Assembly: GCF_001677475.2 (NCBI RefSeq)
Contig: NZ_CP015229.1
DNA: 64,000 bases
DNA from: Escherichia coli
Lineage (GTDB): Bacteria > Pseudomonadota > Gammaproteobacteria > Enterobacterales > Enterobacteriaceae
Strand: one strand, 5' to 3'
Each line of letters starts with the position of its first letter. Positions within the stretch are counted from its first letter, which is position 1. The notes under the pieces are model-generated. The model was not told where the DNA came from. It saw only the letters and a program-made list of their open reading frames with translations, and did no database searches. Shown piece by piece: positions 30,848-35,498 of this stretch. A program made the translations under genes and the position numbers.

Positions 30848-31921
30848 GTGGGGCAGCGAATACCTGTAACGCTTGGTAATATTGCGCCGTTGTCGCTAAG
30901 GCCGTTCCAGCCTGGACGAATAGCTCTGGTGTGCGAAGGCGGCGGACAGCGTGGAATTTTCACGGCTGGCGTGCTGGATGAGTTTATGCGCGCGCAGTTT
31001 AATCCTTTCGATCTTTATCTCGGCACATCTGCCGGGGCGCAGAACCTCTCGGCGTATATCTGCAATCAGCCCGGTTACGCGCGCAAAGTCATCATGCGCT
31101 ATACCACAAAACGCGAATTTTTCGATCCATTGCGCTTTGTCCGTGGAGGAAATCTTATCGATCTCGACTGGCTGGTGGAGGCCACCGCAAGCCAGATGCC
31201 GTTGCAAATGGATACCGCAGCGCGGTTATTTGACAGCGGCAAATCGTTTTATATGTGCGCCTGTCGTCAGGATGACTATGCGCCGAATTACTTTTTGCCA
31301 ACTAAACAAAACTGGCTGGATGTGATTCGCTCCTCCAGTGCGATACCTGGCTTTTATCGTAGCGGAGTGTCGCTGGAAGGTATTAACTACCTGGATGGTG
31401 GGATCAGTGATGCGATCCCGGTTAAAGAGGCGGCAAGGCAGGGCGCTAAAACGTTAGTCGTCATCCGCACTGTGCCGTCACAAATGTACTACACGCCGCA
31501 GTGGTTCAAACGCATGGAACGCTGGCTGGGTGACAGTAGCCTGCAGCCGCTGGTCAATCTGGTGCAGCATCATGAAACCAGCTATCGTGACATTCAGCAA
31601 TTTATTGAGAAACCACCGGGCAAGCTGCGGATATTCGAAATTTATCCGCCGAAGCCATTACATAGTATCGCGCTTGGCAGTCGGATTCCGGCGCTGCGTG
31701 AAGACTATAAACTTGGGCGTTTATGCGGTCGTTATTTCCTCGCCACGGTCGGTAAATTATTGACTGAAAAAGCGCCGCTTACCCGCCATCTGGTGCCAGT
31801 GGTGACGCCGGAATCGATCGTTATTCCGCCTGCGCCAGTCGCCAACGATACGCTGGTTGCCGAAGTGAGCGATGCTCCGCAGGCGAACGACCCGACATTT
31901 AACAATGAGGATCTGGCTTGA
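30848..31921 (+). CDS. yjjU: Patatin-like phospholipase YjjU
   Basis: 357 aa from GTG at 30848 (SD aggaagg upstream); patatin motifs GGGQRG and GTSAG. Confidence 0.9.
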   Translation: MGQRIPVTLGNIAPLSLRPFQPGRIALVCEGGGQRGIFTAGVLDEFMRAQFNPFDLYLGTSAGAQNLSAYICNQPGYARKVIMRYTTKREFFDPLRFVRGGNLIDLDWLVEATASQMPLQMDTAARLFDSGKSFYMCACRQDDYAPNYFLPTKQNWLDVIRSSSAIPGFYRSGVSLEGINYLDGGISDAIPVKEAARQGAKTLVVIRTVPSQMYYTPQWFKRMERWLGDSSLQPLVNLVQHHETSYRDIQQFIEKPPGKLRIFEIYPPKPLHSIALGSRIPALREDYKLGRLCGRYFLATVGKLLTEKAPLTRHLVPVVTPESIVIPPAPVANDTLVAEVSDAPQANDPTFNNEDLA

Positions 31922-32697
31922 TTTGCCGTTTTATCGACACCCACTGCCATTTTGATTTCCCGCCGTTTAGTGGCGATGAAGAGGCCAGCCTACAACGCGC
32001 GGCACAAGCGGGCGTAGGCAAGATCATTGTTCCGGCAACCGAGGCGGAAAATTTTGCCCGCGTGCAGGCGTTAGCGGAAAAATATCAACCGCTGTATGCC
32101 GCATTGGGCTTGCATCCTGGTATGTTGGAAAAACATAGCGATGTGTCTCTTGATCAGCTACAGCAGGCGCTGGAAAGGCGTCCGGCGAAGGTGGTGGCGG
32201 TGGGGGAGATCGGTCTGGATCTCTTCGGCGACGATCCGCAATTTGAGAGGCAGCAGTGGTTACTCGACGAACAACTGAAACTGGCGAAACGCTACGATCT
32301 GCCGGTGATCCTGCATTCACGGCGCACACACGACAAACTGGCGATGCATCTTAAACGCCACGATTTATCGCGCACTGGCGTGGTTCACGGTTTTTCCGGC
32401 AGCCTGCAACAGGCCGAGCGGTTTGTACAGCTGGGCTACAAAATCGGTGTAGGCGGTACTATCACCTATCCACGCGCCAGTAAAACCCGCGATGTCATCG
32501 CAAAATTACCGCTGGCATCGTTGTTGCTGGAAACCGACGCGCCGGATATGCCGCTCAACGGCTTTCAGGGGCAGCCTAACCGCCCGGAACAGGCTGCGCG
32601 GGTGTTTGACGTGCTTTGCGAGTTGCGCCCGGAACCGGCGGATGAGATTGCGCAAGCGTTGCTTAATAACACGTATGCGGTGTTTAACGTGCCGTAG
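31918..32697 (+). CDS. yjjV: TatD-family metal-dependent hydrolase YjjV
   Basis: 259 aa; DTHCH start motif and TatD-like His/Asp pattern; overlaps the yjjU stop. Confidence 0.9.
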   Translation: MICRFIDTHCHFDFPPFSGDEEASLQRAAQAGVGKIIVPATEAENFARVQALAEKYQPLYAALGLHPGMLEKHSDVSLDQLQQALERRPAKVVAVGEIGLDLFGDDPQFERQQWLLDEQLKLAKRYDLPVILHSRRTHDKLAMHLKRHDLSRTGVVHGFSGSLQQAERFVQLGYKIGVGGTITYPRASKTRDVIAKLPLASLLLETDAPDMPLNGFQGQPNRPEQAARVFDVLCELRPEPADEIAQALLNNTYAVFNVP

Positions 32698-32899
32698 GCC
32701 GGATAAGGCGTTTACGCCGCATCCGGCAGTTGGCGCACAATGCCTGATGCGACGCTTGACGCGTCTTATCATGCCTACAAGTCTGTGCCGAACCGTAGGC
32801 CGGATAAGGCGTTCACGCCGCATCCGGCAGTTGGTGCACAATGCCTGATGCGACGCTTGACGCGTCTTATCATGCCTACAGGCCTGTGCTACCGGCATG
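32698..32899. repeat. REP/BIME cluster: two tandem ~100-bp units each carrying REP palindromes
   Basis: Two near-identical units beginning ggccggataaggcgtt(t/c)acgccgcatccggcagttgg...gcctgatgcgacgcttgacgcgtcttatcatgcctac. Confidence 0.85.
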
Positions 32900-33763
32900 T
32901 TACAAATACAGCGCCGGGAATATTAAGCGGCTCACCCCGCGCACCTTTAATGCATCAGCCAACGGCTCAACGTCTTCCGGCGTGGCGCTCGCCCAGCTTT
33001 GCGCTTCGCCATACACGCCGTGGGCATGAAACGCGTTCAGGCGTACCGGAACATCGCCGACTCCCTTGATAAACGCCGCCAGTTCTTCGATGTGTTGCAA
33101 ATAATCCACCTGGCCAGGGATTACCAGCAAACGCAGTTCCGCCAGCTTACCGCGCTCTGCCAGCAAACAGATGCTGCGCTTAATCTGCTGATTATCGCGT
33201 CCGGTTAATTGCTGATGACATTCGCTCCCCCACGCTTTGAGATCGAGCATTGCGCCGTCGCACACCGGAAGCAATTTTTCCCAGCCGGTTTCGCTCAACA
33301 TGCCATTACTGTCCACCAGACAGGTGAGGTGGCGCAGTTGCGGATCATTTTTGATAGCAGTAAACAGCGCCACCACAAACGGTAGCTGGGTCGTGGCTTC
33401 GCCGCCGCTTACCGTTATCCCTTCGATAAACAGCACTGCTTTGCGGATATGGCTAAGCACCTCATCCACGCTCATGGACTGCGCCATTGGCGTGGCATGT
33501 TGCGGACACATCTTCAGGCAGGTATCACATTGCTCGCAGACCACAGCGTTCCACACCACTTTGCCGTCAACAATCTGCAACGCCTGATGCGGACACTGTG
33601 GCACGCACTCCCCACAGTCATTGCAGCGTCCCATCGTCCACGGATTGTGACAGTTTTTACAGCGCAGATTGCAGCCCTGCAAAAACAGAGCCAGACGACT
33701 GCCTGGCCCGTCAACGCAGGAGAAGGGGATAATCTTACTGACTAAAGCGCATCTGCTGTTCAT
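32900..33763 (-). CDS. yjjW: Glycyl-radical enzyme activating protein YjjW (radical SAM)
   Basis: 287 aa; CxxxCxxC radical-SAM cluster (GCNLRCKNC) plus extra Cys ferredoxin-like motifs. Confidence 0.9.
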
Positions 33764-35285
33764 GGCTTATCACGCGCGGCTGGCGTTCCAGAATACGAGT
33801 GTTGCGTGCTGCTTCTTCGCCTAGCCAGGTGGTGTTGGTGCGTGAACCTTCGGCGCGATATTTTTCTAAATCCGACAAACGCACCATATAACCGGTAACG
33901 CGAACCAGATCGTTACCGCTGACATTGGCGGTAAATTCACGCATTCCGGCTTTAAAGGCTCCGAGGCAAAGCTGTACCAGCGCCTGCGGATTACGTTTGA
34001 TGGTTTCGTCGAGCGTCAGAATATCGCTGATACCGGAATAATAATAAGCATGATGCGGGGCGACAGTTTGCAGATGGGTGATCGGATCTGGCTCATCGCC
34101 ATACGGCAAACGCGCGCCCGGCGTGGTGCCGATATCGGAACTGATCCCCGACTGTGCGTGTAACATGGCGCGTTTTTGCCAGCCATATTTCACGGGGGTA
34201 TTGGCGACAAACTCCGCCAGTTGCGCGCTGATGCGATAACCCACTTCATTTGCAGCAGCTTCTTTACCGTAACGTGCGACAATTCCTTCTTTCTCACACA
34301 GTAAGTTAACTGCTTCCGCCAGTCCGTACATGCCAAACATTGGCACAAAACGTTCAGGGTTAATCAGCCCTTCTTTCACCAGGAAGCTATTCTCAAAGAA
34401 GTGTGATTGTTGATAGAGGAATTCACACCGCGCATCGATGATGGCGATCTGCTGCTGGCAGTAGTGCGGTAGAGTGCGCGTAAAGAAGTCTTCCAGCGAT
34501 TCACTGCGCTCGGCAATGGCTTTCAGGTTAAGGCGTACCAGCGTGCTGCCACCACCCGCCAGCGGCAGTGAGTTGTAACAGCTCACAATCCCGTAGCCCC
34601 CTTTTGTGAAAATTTTATCATGCACCGGACCGTTGGCGATGTGCGGTTTGCTACATTCACAGATGTTTTTCGCCACTTCCAGCAGCAGGTCATCAGGGGT
34701 GATTTCAGGATCGTAGATAAAGGTCAGGTTCGGTGAAACCTGCTTCAACTCTGCGTCTGCACGTAAAATCGCACGGGTAATGGGCGAATCAGATGGGCCG
34801 ATATTGGCATGCATAAAGGCGTCTGGCAGGGTTCTGTCGAGGTAACGCCAGAAACGTTTTATTCGAATATCGATCTCGTCTTGTGTTAGAATTCTAACAT
34901 ACGGTTGCAACAACGCATCCAGTTGCCCCAGGTAGACCGGCATCGATGTGACCGACGGTACGTGGTGGTAAAGAATGGTCAGCAGAGAGAGTGCGTCATC
35001 AAGATCTTTCGCGCCTTCCAGCTCCAGCCATTCGGAACCGTTCGCCAGAAAACGGGCGTAATCGGGTAAGACATAGCGCGGTTTGTACGGCGCATGACCT
35101 TCAAACATATCGCAGATTACACCCTCATCCAGCGCGCGGCGGGCTTCGGCAGGAAGCTGCGGATAAGGCAGATTGTTTTCTGCTTCCAGTGCCAGAAAAT
35201 GGCGCTTCTGCTCCGGGCTAAGCACTGGGCTGGTGACAATTTGCTGGCAACGTTGTTGCAGTGCATTTTCATGAGAAGTGGGCAT
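33735..35285 (-). CDS. yjjI: YjjI, glycyl-radical-enzyme-like protein of unknown function
   Basis: 516 aa; conserved backbone position next to its activase yjjW. Confidence 0.9.
34605..34620. promoter_or_regulatory. Candidate DeoR operator OE (weak palindrome)
   Basis: TGTGAAAATTTTATCA centred 279 bp upstream of O1, the spacing I recall for deo OE-O1. Confidence 0.4.
34884..34899. promoter_or_regulatory. DeoR operator O1 (deoP1), lying inside the yjjI coding region
   Basis: Perfect 16-bp palindrome TGTTAGAATTCTAACA; centre is 599 bp upstream of the O2 palindrome. Confidence 0.6.
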
Positions 35286-35482
35286 CTTCTTTTCCTTTTA
35301 TGCCGAAGGTGATGCGCCATTGTAAGAAGTTTCGTGATGTTCACTTTGATCCTGATGCGTTTGCCACCACTGACGCATTCATTTGAAAGTGAATTATTTG
35401 AACCAGATCGCATTACAGTGATGCAAACTTGTAAGTAGATTTCCTTAATTGTGATGTATATCGAAGTGTGTTGCGGAGTAGA

Positions 35483-35498
35483 TGTTAGAATACTAACA
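35483..35498. promoter_or_regulatory. DeoR operator O2 (deoP2) upstream of deoC
   Basis: TGTTAGAATACTAACA palindrome 45 bp upstream of the deoC start; TGTGA-containing CRP/CytR-like sequence just upstream. Confidence 0.6.

Follow-up and report, generated by a model that had tools for sequence, protein, structure and literature searches.

The region described here lies in a 64-kb window (the whole stretch of DNA that was analysed) and is, with a probability of about 0.88, the standard E. coli yjjUV / yjjWI / deoCABD junction under three-operator control by DeoR, with the control region overlapping yjjI. DeoR three-operator looping at deo is a textbook system, so the feature itself is already known; what the comparison adds is support for a coupled constraint on the deo operators and yjjI, which the initial annotation had put forward as an inference and which comparative data now back. 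The junction is kept in 5423 of 5426 complete E. coli genomes, in agreement with the earlier description of the yjj genes as conserved backbone, and the identities and places assigned to yjjU, yjjV, yjjW, yjjI, and deoC were confirmed by Pfam and NCBIfam models (Table 1). In K-12 MG1655, yjjI occupies 4615515-4617065 and the same three operator sequences are found at 4616385, 4616664, and 4617263; the spacings, the layout relative to deoC and yjjI, and the P2 CRP sites are likewise those of the K-12 deoCABD control region, from which the window showed no differences. As in K-12, deoC is followed by deoA, deoB, and deoD. The OE-O1-O2 system with deoP1 and deoP2 was worked out in K-12 by Valentin-Hansen, Dandanell, Hammer, and Amouyal between 1982 and 1989. 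The original deo literature treated this DNA as upstream regulatory sequence, and the location of O1 and OE within yjjI codons and its evolutionary consequences have seldom been discussed; no paper on the subject was found.

Table 1. Features of the yjjUV / yjjWI / deoCABD junction (window coordinates)
Feature	Position	Strand	Description
yjjU	30848..31921	+	patatin-like phospholipase, 357 aa; Pfam PF01734 and DUF6363
yjjV	31918..32697	+	TatD-family metal-dependent hydrolase; PRK11449, PF01026
Two tandem 101-bp REP-type units	32692..32889		Rfam naRNA4/CssrE; occupy the convergent yjjV-yjjW gap
yjjW	32900..33763	-	glycyl-radical-enzyme activase, 287 aa; TIGR04041
yjjI	33735..35285	-	YjjI-family glycyl radical enzyme, 516 aa; TIGR04040, PF11230
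OE TGTGAAAATTTTATCA	34605..34620		DeoR operator; 4-mismatch palindrome match
Conserved block CCAGAAACGTTTTATTCGAAT	34846..34866		about -55 to -35 from deoP1; second-lowest-entropy 16-nt window
O1 TGTTAGAATTCTAACA and deoP1	34884..34899	+	perfect DeoR palindrome; exact match
Weak CRP-like site TGTGACCGACGGTACG	34947..34962		inside yjjI; MEME-called
Putative yjjI promoter	35319..35358	-	-10 TACAAT, 35324 to 35319 on the minus strand
deoP2 activator region	35397..35465	+	CRP-2, CytR region between, CRP-1; conserved blocks (58 intergenic sequences)
O2 TGTTAGAATACTAACA and deoP2 extended -10 (TGTTAGAAT)	35483..35498	+	1-mismatch DeoR palindrome, just upstream of deoC
deoC	35543..36322	+	deoxyribose-phosphate aldolase, first gene of deoCABD; TIGR00126, 294.7 bits

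Matches to the DeoR palindrome with three or fewer mismatches numbered 2 in the 64-kb window, against 0.14 expected from shuffles; the window held none with 2 or 3 mismatches, OE was its sole match with 4, and O1, O2, and OE are the best three matches of the whole 64 kb. Measured start to start, O1 and O2 are exactly 599 bp apart, and OE lies exactly 279 bp to the left of O1, deeper inside yjjI, which bears out the initial annotation both on these distances and on a palindrome some 400 bp inside the 5' part of yjjI with a weaker third one further in. O1 falls at about nt 386-402 of the yjjI CDS (third base of codon 129 to codon 134, read as taT GTT AGA ATT CTA ACA) and OE at nt 666-681 (third base of codon 222 to codon 227, read as caT GAT AAA ATT TTC ACA), and the two share one reading phase. 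An O1-O2 spacing of 599 bp has been published for deo (PMC3334521), as have operators ~600 bp apart at the tandem promoters with OE ~300 bp upstream and DeoR loops seen both under the electron microscope and in vivo (PMC8053113); the natural looping range of DeoR is ~900 bp (PMC4217526). DeoR probably occupies the operators of the window as well, by extrapolation from K-12, whose sites are identical. In the 1980s K-12 literature, DeoR is reported to have been footprinted on these sites and deo repression to have been lost when they were synonymously recoded, and the exact 279-bp operator spacing was reportedly given by Valentin-Hansen in 1986 and Amouyal in 1989.

In the mechanism known from the literature, deoCABD is transcribed from P1 and P2, extended -10 promoters in tandem that are themselves 16-bp DeoR palindromes, with the third operator further upstream; one DeoR oligomer bound to all three sites loops the DNA and shuts both promoters, and deoxyribose-5-phosphate releases DeoR and ends repression. 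Because the gap between deoC and yjjI is only 257 bp, P1/O1 and OE come to lie inside the divergently oriented yjjI, so that the same 16-bp stretches have to bind DeoR as well as encode YjjI residues 130-134 and 223-227, and the O1 stretch has to bind RNA polymerase in addition. The conflict may have been resolved by placing the operators in variable segments of YjjI, with the DNA function setting the codons. Coding DNA also serves as a looping repressor's distal operator at lac (O2 in lacZ) and gal (OI in galE), where the operator serves only as an auxiliary site and the gene containing it is the first one of the regulated operon. At deo, by contrast, the gene that harbours two operators and an entire promoter is an unrelated neighbour in the opposite orientation, so that P1 transcription is antisense to yjjI.

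The deoP1 extended -10 element (TGTTAGAAT, 34884-34892) is contained in O1, and transcription from it proceeds to the right, in antisense across the initial ~386 nt of yjjI and then across the yjjI promoter. A generic sigma-70 scan of the region called neither P1 nor P2, as is expected of extended -10 promoters that have no -35 element, and the promoter assignment therefore rests on the literature. Within the deoP2 activator region, CRP-2 is TTTGAACCAGATCGCA (35397-35412) and CRP-1 is TGTGATGTATATCGAA (35450-35465); the CRP-2 and CytR assignments follow the established layout of deoP2. A CRP ChIP-seq site has been reported in this region, and TGTGACCGACGGTACG is the MEME-called site of an intragenic CRP ChIP-seq peak in ETEC (PMC4287617); the latter, at 34947-34962, showed no conservation above the coding pattern in the yjjI alignment. 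The putative yjjI promoter carries an FNR-type half-site (TTGAT, 35345-35349) in a 14-bp site (35345-35358) centred at about -40, and promoter and half-site are conserved in an alignment of 58 intergenic sequences. At yjjI, a ChIP peak for FNR and anaerobic activation that depends on FNR have been reported (PMC3688515; PMC2634741); the yjjI-yjjW pair is induced anaerobically and has its own conserved, putative FNR-type promoter.

Selection on the nucleotides of O1 and OE was assessed with 77 distinct yjjI sequences from about 75 enterobacterial species. Mean third-position entropy was 0.046 bits at O1 and 0.11 at OE, against a gene-wide mean of 1.15 (SD 0.28), placing the two sites 1st and 2nd of 511 six-codon windows, and the codons flanking them vary freely. 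Of all 16-nt windows in the CDS, OE has the lowest entropy, and O1 ranks 3rd among the non-overlapping ones (raw rank 8 of 1533). Of 76 loci, 54 have the exact O1 sequence, and no more than 7 variants of it occur; O2 is conserved, yet has 15 variants across species. Rare codons are fixed by O1 and OE, namely AGA (O1 holds one of only 2 among the gene's 33 Arg codons), CTA (one of 3 among 56 Leu codons), and ACA (one of 3 among 26 Thr codons). In both segments the YjjI protein sequence varies from one family member to another, and an indel-prone stretch lies within them; the AF2 model places residues 130-134 in a loop between helices and residues 223-227 where a short helix ends ahead of the Cys-loop strand. 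We infer that the operators dictate both codons and amino acids at the two sites, an ancestral V-G-x-L-T having apparently become V-R/K-I-L-T at O1 and D-A-V-F-G having become D-K-I-F-T at OE; the direction of replacement was read from outgroups, without formal ancestral reconstruction. Function as the P1 -10 element could explain the conservation of O1 just as well as DeoR binding, an argument that is inapplicable to OE. The block at 34846-34866 also fixes codons rare in yjjI (CGA and ATA), its third codon positions vary in Proteus, and it is a candidate UP-element-like sequence or site for another factor.

It is very improbable that the near-invariance of O1 and OE comes from yjjI itself (protein, codon usage, mRNA structure, or translation pausing), with the resemblance to operators incidental. 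The two sites are in frame in the same phase, 279 nt being 93 codons, and the neighbouring block encodes the family-conserved KRFW motif, as such a reading would have it; against it stand the variability of both segments within the family, the rarity of the codons fixed there, and the fact that the three sites share one palindrome at the spacings of the published operators. Homologues in which yjjI-yjjW is present without deo also argue against it: in four Proteus species, Providencia, Moellerella, and six distant homologues, the O1 and OE codons specify other residues, their synonymous sites are variable, and no operator-like sequence was found there. These control lineages are few in number, though phylogenetically independent. 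Hafnia and Edwardsiella, which are deo-adjacent, have O1 as TGTTGGAATTCTAACA and TGTTGGAATTTTAACA, respectively, and both keep Gly131. Classical deo work is older than the annotation of yjjI and handled this DNA as a regulatory region, which would suit a non-coding yjjI 5' region (through a later start or decay of the gene) with the operators effectively in non-coding DNA. This can practically be dismissed and is refuted by sequence evidence: the ORF is intact over 516 codons, the TIGR04040 HMM aligns residues 11-504 end to end, variation is codon-periodic (third position) on both sides of O1, and orthologues share the start Met, so that the start of yjjI does not lie downstream of the palindromes. 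The N-terminal 130 residues hold invariant family positions (E62, R70, Y71, P74, G83, L102, Y106, G120, and D123 across homologues of 33-71% identity), and the N terminus is conserved down to 33% identity.

The overlap might also be regulatory, with DeoR bound to O1 and OE (acting as a roadblock, or by way of an O1-O2 loop in which the yjjI promoter is enclosed) and convergent antisense transcription from deoP1 gating yjjI-yjjW; if true, this would tie an orphan glycyl radical enzyme to deoxynucleoside availability, possibly with nucleoside-derived substrates. O1 and O2 flank the yjjI promoter, transcription of yjjI must cross O1 and OE, and P1 reads antisense through the beginning of the gene and its promoter. 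The adjacency of deoC and yjjI is retained in the Enterobacteriaceae, Hafnia, and Edwardsiella, in Moellerella the gene immediately upstream of yjjI, read from the same strand, encodes a nupC-family nucleoside transporter, and class III ribonucleotide reductases are the best structural matches of YjjI. We nevertheless consider such gating unlikely. A search for expression data tying yjjI to DeoR found none, and the genes with which yjjI has been published to be co-expressed are those of FNR and nitrate respiration; in Proteus, Providencia, and all distant homologues, yjjI is not next to deo, and NrdD as top fold match may reflect only that it is the smallest glycyl radical enzyme. The C-terminal tail of YjjI has no Zn-ribbon cysteines, and at 516 aa the protein appears too short for an ATP-cone.

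YjjI and YjjW are a bona fide FNR-activated enzyme-activase pair that is still uncharacterised: as the initial annotation held, neither has an established role, both NCBIfam models are graded 'hypoth_equivalog', and no biochemical characterisation was found in open-access papers. YjjI scored 787 bits against TIGR04040 (cutoff, 498) and YjjW 397.7 bits against TIGR04041 (cutoff, 250), and the start of yjjW overlaps the 3' end of yjjI by 29 nt. The RVTGY glycyl motif (G465) and SCYN Cys loop (C236) of YjjI are invariant columns in the family alignment, and its AF2 model (pLDDT 92) has a glycyl-radical-enzyme / NrdD fold whose best PDB matches are NrdD and other glycyl radical enzymes (TMq 0.65-0.75; E down to 1e-17). 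YjjI is a minimal glycyl radical enzyme whose radical is probably installed on Gly465 by YjjW, with the thiyl radical likely to form at Cys236. A predicted 10-stranded barrel, a C-terminal RVxG[FWY], a Cys loop at the barrel centre, and a dedicated adjacent radical-SAM activase liken it to NrdD and the PFL-type enzymes (PflB, PflD, HypD, and the glycerol/propanediol dehydratases). It differs in its identity to solved structures (just 10-16%), in being shorter than PFL-type enzymes (750-850 aa), in having no Zn-ribbon cysteines after the glycyl motif, and in matching its own PF11230/TIGR04040 and not PFL-like/Gly_radical or NRDD at full strength. YjjW has an N-terminal CX3CX2C (residues 31-38) and two ferredoxin-like CX2CX2CX3C motifs, as do the PflC/PFLE_PFLC subfamily, CutD, and the HypD activase; it scored 134.5 bits against TIGR02494, fell short of the trusted cutoff of every characterised activase equivalog, and matched only the YjjW family model. 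In some distant homologues, YjjI is paired with a shorter, 250-aa activase.

A YjjW-type activase adjoins yjjI in every neighbourhood examined and is its sole conserved neighbour, whereas the patatin/TatD adjacency is lineage-specific synteny. yjjU starts with GTG at position 30848, has the extent of K-12 b4377, and encodes the GGGxR oxyanion, GTSAG nucleophile elbow, and DGG aspartate motifs; yjjV (575 bits against PRK11449; cutoff, 481) overlaps the yjjU stop by 4 nt, and the two therefore form an operon. That yjjU-yjjV and yjjW-yjjI make up one functional unit, such as a radical-enzyme pathway on a lipid-derived substrate, is very doubtful, and as a conserved association it is already largely refuted. 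Escherichia, Salmonella, Citrobacter, Enterobacter, Kosakonia, and others have the two pairs side by side in convergent orientation; the pairs are nonetheless separate convergent transcription units with REP elements between them, several genera have ~1.4 kb inserted there, and none of 9 more distant yjjI neighbourhoods contains a patatin or TatD gene. The juxtaposition with a patatin-like lipase on which the initial annotation was headed thus found no functional support, as yjjUV is not near yjjIW in Hafnia, Proteus, or any distant homologue examined. The REP-type units gave a TRF period of 101 with 2.0 copies and matched RF02564 twice (78.8 bits); the yjjV-yjjW gap of K-12 holds ~4 such units, versus 2 in the window.

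A search of the 64 kb with the 16-bp palindrome TGTTAGAA/TTCTAACA returned O1 and O2, two matches of a type for which 0.14 would be expected in shuffled sequence, and OE, the sole match with four mismatches; no site in the 64 kb matched with two or three mismatches, and none apart from these three matched with four or fewer. The initial annotation had described palindromes 599 bp apart with a third 279 bp further in, and this is exactly the arrangement recovered. It has the published geometry of the deo control region, with spacings of 599 and 279 bp, the extended -10 element TGnTAGAAT within both O1 and O2, and the deoC ATG 45 bp past O2, and E. 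coli K-12 has the identical three operator sequences at identical spacing. O1, O2, and OE are the DeoR operators of deoCABD, a textbook looping system, with binding carried over from the literature on identical sequences. The exact OE-O1 spacing of 279 bp is reportedly that of the primary operator paper on deo; published statements beside it are "about 300 bp" (PMC8053113) and "up to 900 bp" (PMC4217526). The DeoR system is described as single operators ~600 bp apart at tandem promoters plus a third operator ~300 bp further upstream, forming loops that are visible by electron microscopy, with ~72% looping in vivo at the natural spacing (PMC8053113); a 599-bp separation of deoP1 and deoP2 (PMC3334521) and deoxyribose-5-phosphate as the DeoR inducer (PMC5326754) have also been published.

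Features of the yjjU-deoC region (coordinates refer to the whole window)
Feature	Position	Strand	Description
yjjU	30848-31921	+	GTG start; PF01734 83.3 bits; DUF6363; GGGQR at 31, GTSAG at 59, DGG at 183
yjjV	31918-32697	+	TatD family; PRK11449 575 bits (cutoff 481)
Two tandem 101-bp REP-type units	32692-32889		yjjV-yjjW gap; Rfam naRNA4/CssrE RF02564, 78.8 bits each
yjjW	32900-33763	-	TIGR04041 397.7 bits (cutoff 250.2); start overlaps yjjI 3' end by 29 nt
yjjI	33735-35285	-	516 aa; TIGR04040 787.3 bits (cutoff 498.3), residues 11-504 on profile 1-497; PF11230 731 bits
OE	34605-34620		TGTGAAAATTTTATCA; 4 mismatches; exactly 279 bp left of O1
Conserved block inside yjjI	34846-34866		21 bp, CCAGAAACGTTTTATTCGAAT
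O1	34884-34899		TGTTAGAATTCTAACA; 0 mismatches, single occurrence in the window; palindrome search
Putative yjjI promoter -10, TACAAT	35324 to 35319	-	Intergenic alignment
TTGAT half-site	35345-35349		Centred ~40 bp upstream of presumed yjjI start; intergenic alignment
O2	35483-35498		TGTTAGAATACTAACA; 1 mismatch; 599 bp from O1; conserved in intergenic alignment
Two CRP sites of P2			Conserved; intergenic alignment
deoC ribosome-binding site			Conserved; intergenic alignment
deoC	start 35543	+	First deo gene

With only 257 bp between deoC and yjjI, P1/O1 and OE necessarily fall within yjjI. Counted from the start at 35285, O1 occupies nt 387-402 of the coding sequence (taT GTT AGA ATT CTA ACA, residues Y129-T134), in keeping with its earlier placement ~400 bp inside the 5' part of the gene, and OE occupies nt 666-681 (caT GAT AAA ATT TTC ACA, residues H222-T227); an offset of 279 nt equals 93 codons, which puts the two sites in the same phase. 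Transcripts from P1 run antisense across ~386 nt of the yjjI coding sequence and then across the yjjI promoter. This region of yjjI is truly coding: the family HMM match takes in the YjjI N-terminus (TIGR04040, residues 11-504), invariant residues are spread all along 62-123 when 19 homologues (33-71% identity) are aligned with it, the same methionine starts the orthologues in 80 species, and the nucleotide variation flanking O1 on both sides is periodic by three bases, as in coding DNA. A yjjI start codon downstream of the operators, which we also considered, is contradicted by all four observations.

To place operators in coding DNA was, in the initial annotation, to imply coupled constraints on both, and comparison across species bears this out. 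Loci containing yjjI were fetched from 80 species, and 77 distinct deo-adjacent sequences were aligned by codon; third-position entropy in this alignment averaged 1.15 bits (sd 0.28; 6-codon windows), and the O1 and OE windows, at 0.046 and 0.11 bits, were the two lowest of 511. Ranked as non-overlapping 16-nt windows, OE came 1st and O1 3rd, with free variation in the codons directly flanking the sites (CCN128, GAN136-137, GGN229, and others). O1 is exact in 54/76 loci and has only 7 variants, OE has 5, and the codons fixed in O1 include rare ones, namely one of the gene's two AGA (33 Arg codons), one of three CTA (56 Leu), and one of three ACA (26 Thr). The OE-O1 distance is held at 279 bp because the reading frame locks it; O1 and O2 are 567 to 675 bp apart (mode, 601), and a search for helical phasing of this spacing across species found no convincing periodicity. 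Non-coding O2 is more variable (15 variants in the O2-region set, L001-L076) than either of the operators embedded in coding sequence.

The order deoA-deoC <> yjjI-yjjW occurs in Escherichia, Salmonella, Citrobacter, Enterobacter, Kosakonia, Kluyvera, and others; Hafnia and Edwardsiella share it. Four Proteus species carry yjjI-yjjW without deo, with smp-serB-radA-nadR adjoining yjjI instead (L077-L080, 1-5000); their O1 codons read GTG GGT GAG CTC ACC and similar (V-G-E/N/S-L-T) and their OE codons GAT GCN GTN TTT GGN (D-A-V-F-G), with variable third positions at both. In Providencia, Moellerella, and six distant homologues, the residues at these codons are unrelated and no operator-like sequence was found. 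Conservation of O1 and OE thus goes beyond the local background and represents purifying selection at the nucleotide level that is confined to lineages with deo next to yjjI. Hafnia and Edwardsiella have O1 as TGTTGGAATT(C/T)TAACA with Gly131 kept, which looks like an intermediate toward the perfect palindrome, with Arg/Lys131, of Enterobacteriaceae. Both operator segments are variable in the family alignment, with indels around O1, and in the AF2 model (pLDDT 92) residues 130-134 form an inter-helix loop and residues 223-227 the end of a short helix preceding the Cys-loop strand. The operators, we conclude, arose in parts of YjjI that are structurally permissive, where they now determine codons and residues alike; which way the change went is read from outgroups. 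Since smp abuts yjjI in Proteus whereas the deo operon sits between smp and yjjI in E. coli, the junction came about via insertion or rearrangement in the Enterobacteriaceae/Hafniaceae lineage or via deletion in Morganellaceae. In K-12, hipH/yjjJ lies directly after deoD, and lplA is presumably beyond it in E. coli, between deo and the smp side.

Promoters were assigned from the operator-embedded TGnTAGAAT motif, conservation, and the literature, and conserved intergenic elements were read from an alignment of deoC-yjjI intergenic sequences. When 34500-35600 was scanned for generic sigma-70 promoters and terminators, neither deo promoter (deoP1, deoP2) nor that of yjjI was called; a simple -35/-10 scan misses P1 and P2 because both are extended -10 elements. 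The sole site flagged was on the minus strand overlapping OE, which there reads TGATAAAAT, paired with TCGCCA at a 16-bp spacer. As O1 is a perfect palindrome, the extended -10 TGTTAGAAT is present on both strands, and the predicted minus-strand elements in O1 or OE could give rise to sense transcripts of yjjI/yjjW that start internally under DeoR control. The conserved TTGAT half-site and TACAAT fit the published FNR ChIP peak at yjjI and its FNR-dependent anaerobic activation (PMC3688515, PMC2634741); published data also have yjjI co-expressed with anaerobic respiration genes. Like DeoR binding and looping, FNR activation is taken from the literature, whereas the positions, the identity to K-12, the selection in deo-adjacent lineages, and the family membership of all five genes are our own observations.

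The 21-bp block inside yjjI, at approximately -55 to -35 from P1, ranks second in conservation among the gene's 16-nt windows, with the rare codons CGA and ATA fixed and a palindromic core, AAACGTTT, within it. The KRFW motif that it encodes is conserved family-wide, but Proteus species differ from one another at its third positions, so the block is likely to be under a further constraint at the DNA level. It may be an UP element or another factor's site; our best guess, held with low confidence, is an UP-element-like role for P1. Partial matches to motifs for LacI-family regulators (a PurR/RbsR-like AAACGTTT core) and for ModE were considered and not assigned. A published enterotoxigenic E. 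coli (ETEC) CRP ChIP-seq peak also falls inside yjjI at ~34913, 544 bp left of the CRP-1 peak at deoP2, ~22 bp from the O1 centre and ~41 bp from the weak MEME motif assigned to it (34947-34962), a motif no more conserved than the coding pattern accounts for; the peak might be due to cross-linking through the DeoR/CytR loop and not to a true CRP site. When 30000-36500 was searched with Rfam, the only matches were REP-type naRNA4 in the yjjV-yjjW gap, and neither the deo leader nor yjjI gave any.

By its HMM match, fingerprint, Cys loop, predicted barrel fold, and adjacent activase, YjjI is a predicted YjjI-family glycyl radical enzyme. The glycyl fingerprint RVTGY lies at 462-466 (G465) and the Cys loop is S235-C236-x-N238; R462, G465, S235, C236, and N238 are invariant across 20 homologues. 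Foldseek searches of the PDB with the AF2 model (pLDDT 92.2) matched NrdD, PflD, HypD, and PFL at probability 1.00 (TMq 0.6-0.75), the best being class III ribonucleotide reductases (E ~1e-17, TMq 0.65-0.75, 13-16% identity), ahead of PflD, HypD, glycerol and propanediol dehydratases, and PFL. The likeness to NrdD is at the level of the fold only: no NRDD/NrdD match was found in Pfam or NCBIfam, and YjjI has no Cys after residue 440 and hence no Zn-ribbon cysteines, so by the standards of the NrdD family it is not a member. YjjW, with CNLRCKNC at 31-38 (the CX3CX2C radical-SAM motif) and two CX2CX2CX3C ferredoxin-type motifs, is by HMM and motifs a predicted YjjW-family activase (TIGR04041). 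A whole-library search gave 541 YjjI relatives at E-values up to 0.001. The activase adjoins yjjI in all 80 species loci and in 8/9 other neighbourhoods; in the ninth (L085) the contig ends within an unannotated downstream gene. These nine neighbourhoods, all outside the syntenic block, have no conserved partner except the activase and therefore yield no substrate prediction. In the literature we found no biochemical characterisation of YjjI, YjjW, DUF3029, PF11230, or TIGR04040, only expression, ChIP, and bioinformatic mentions, among them a proposed link of YjjI to nitrogen metabolism from co-expression with narG (PMC3228777).

Whether the embedding also serves yjjI is a separate matter. Regulatory cross-talk from DeoR and P1 onto yjjI expression is unlikely on our estimate, and we infer it from layout: the O1-O2 loop encloses the yjjI promoter, transcription of yjjI has to cross O1 and OE, and P1 fires head-on into the gene. 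A fuller form, in which DeoR at O1/OE and convergent P1 transcription would gate FNR-dependent yjjI-yjjW so that synthesis of the enzyme would require a particular combination of anaerobiosis and (deoxy)nucleoside status, its substrate possibly coming from nucleoside or deoxyribose metabolism, is slightly less likely again; we would give it little more than one chance in ten. The hints behind it are the NrdD-like fold, deo adjacency across two enterobacterial families, and nupC upstream of yjjI in Moellerella. That YjjI is functionally tied to nucleoside metabolism is a weaker proposition still than cross-talk: fold, deo adjacency, and the nupC-type transporter directly upstream speak for it, but many neighbourhoods are without any nucleoside genes. 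The transporter, of the nupC family of concentrative nucleoside transporters, is encoded in Moellerella wisconsensis (L091, 3647-4921) 79 bp upstream of yjjI-yjjW and in the same orientation; alongside deo in Enterobacteriaceae, this makes a second and independent case in which the orphan enzyme is associated with nucleoside genes.

Among the glycyl radical enzyme pairs of E. coli, YjjI/YjjW is one of the last still to be characterised, and the DeoR triple-operator loop is a classic system in gene regulation. The loop and the annotated orphan enzyme were already known, and to that extent the finding restates known E. coli biology; the comparative demonstration that operators override yjjI coding constraints is new, neat but incremental. 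It provides a clean natural example of dual-use DNA, in which a repressor and promoter code is laid over a protein code and kept throughout the divergence of Enterobacteriaceae and Hafniaceae, with a measurable cost to yjjI in fixed rare codons and forced residues and with Morganellaceae as natural controls without the overlap. Because deletion (Keio-type knockout) or recoding of yjjI removes deoP1, O1, and OE, it could perturb deo regulation, and phenotypes of yjjI mutants therefore need to be controlled for this; conversely, deo promoter constructs include yjjI coding sequence.

On the other side of the pair, yjjU is by domain and catalytic motifs a predicted patatin-like phospholipase, and the gene layout is that of E. 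coli K-12 b4377-b4381, found in 5423/5426 complete E. coli genomes. HMM matches and the K-12 layout agree with the identities and positions first given to the yjj genes, and with these every factual statement of the initial annotation is confirmed and its interpretation supported. It had also placed the enzyme pair next to a patatin-like lipase; this adjacency holds in the window and does not stand as a conserved association, as the nine neighbourhoods outside the enterobacterial syntenic block contain no patatin, TatD, or deo genes. With the activase as the only recurrent neighbour, the juxtaposition with yjjUV is a lineage-specific synteny in which REP elements divide two convergent operons. 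K-12 has ~4 REP units at the same gap (419 bp vs 202 bp here), so their copy number is polymorphic. The source is E. coli-like but has no close counterpart among complete E. coli genomes, and may be Shigella or a divergent lineage: across 33700-35600, the best identity among 5,426 complete RefSeq E. coli genomes is only 98.8%, K-12 being 97-98% identical and other Escherichia species 93-94%.
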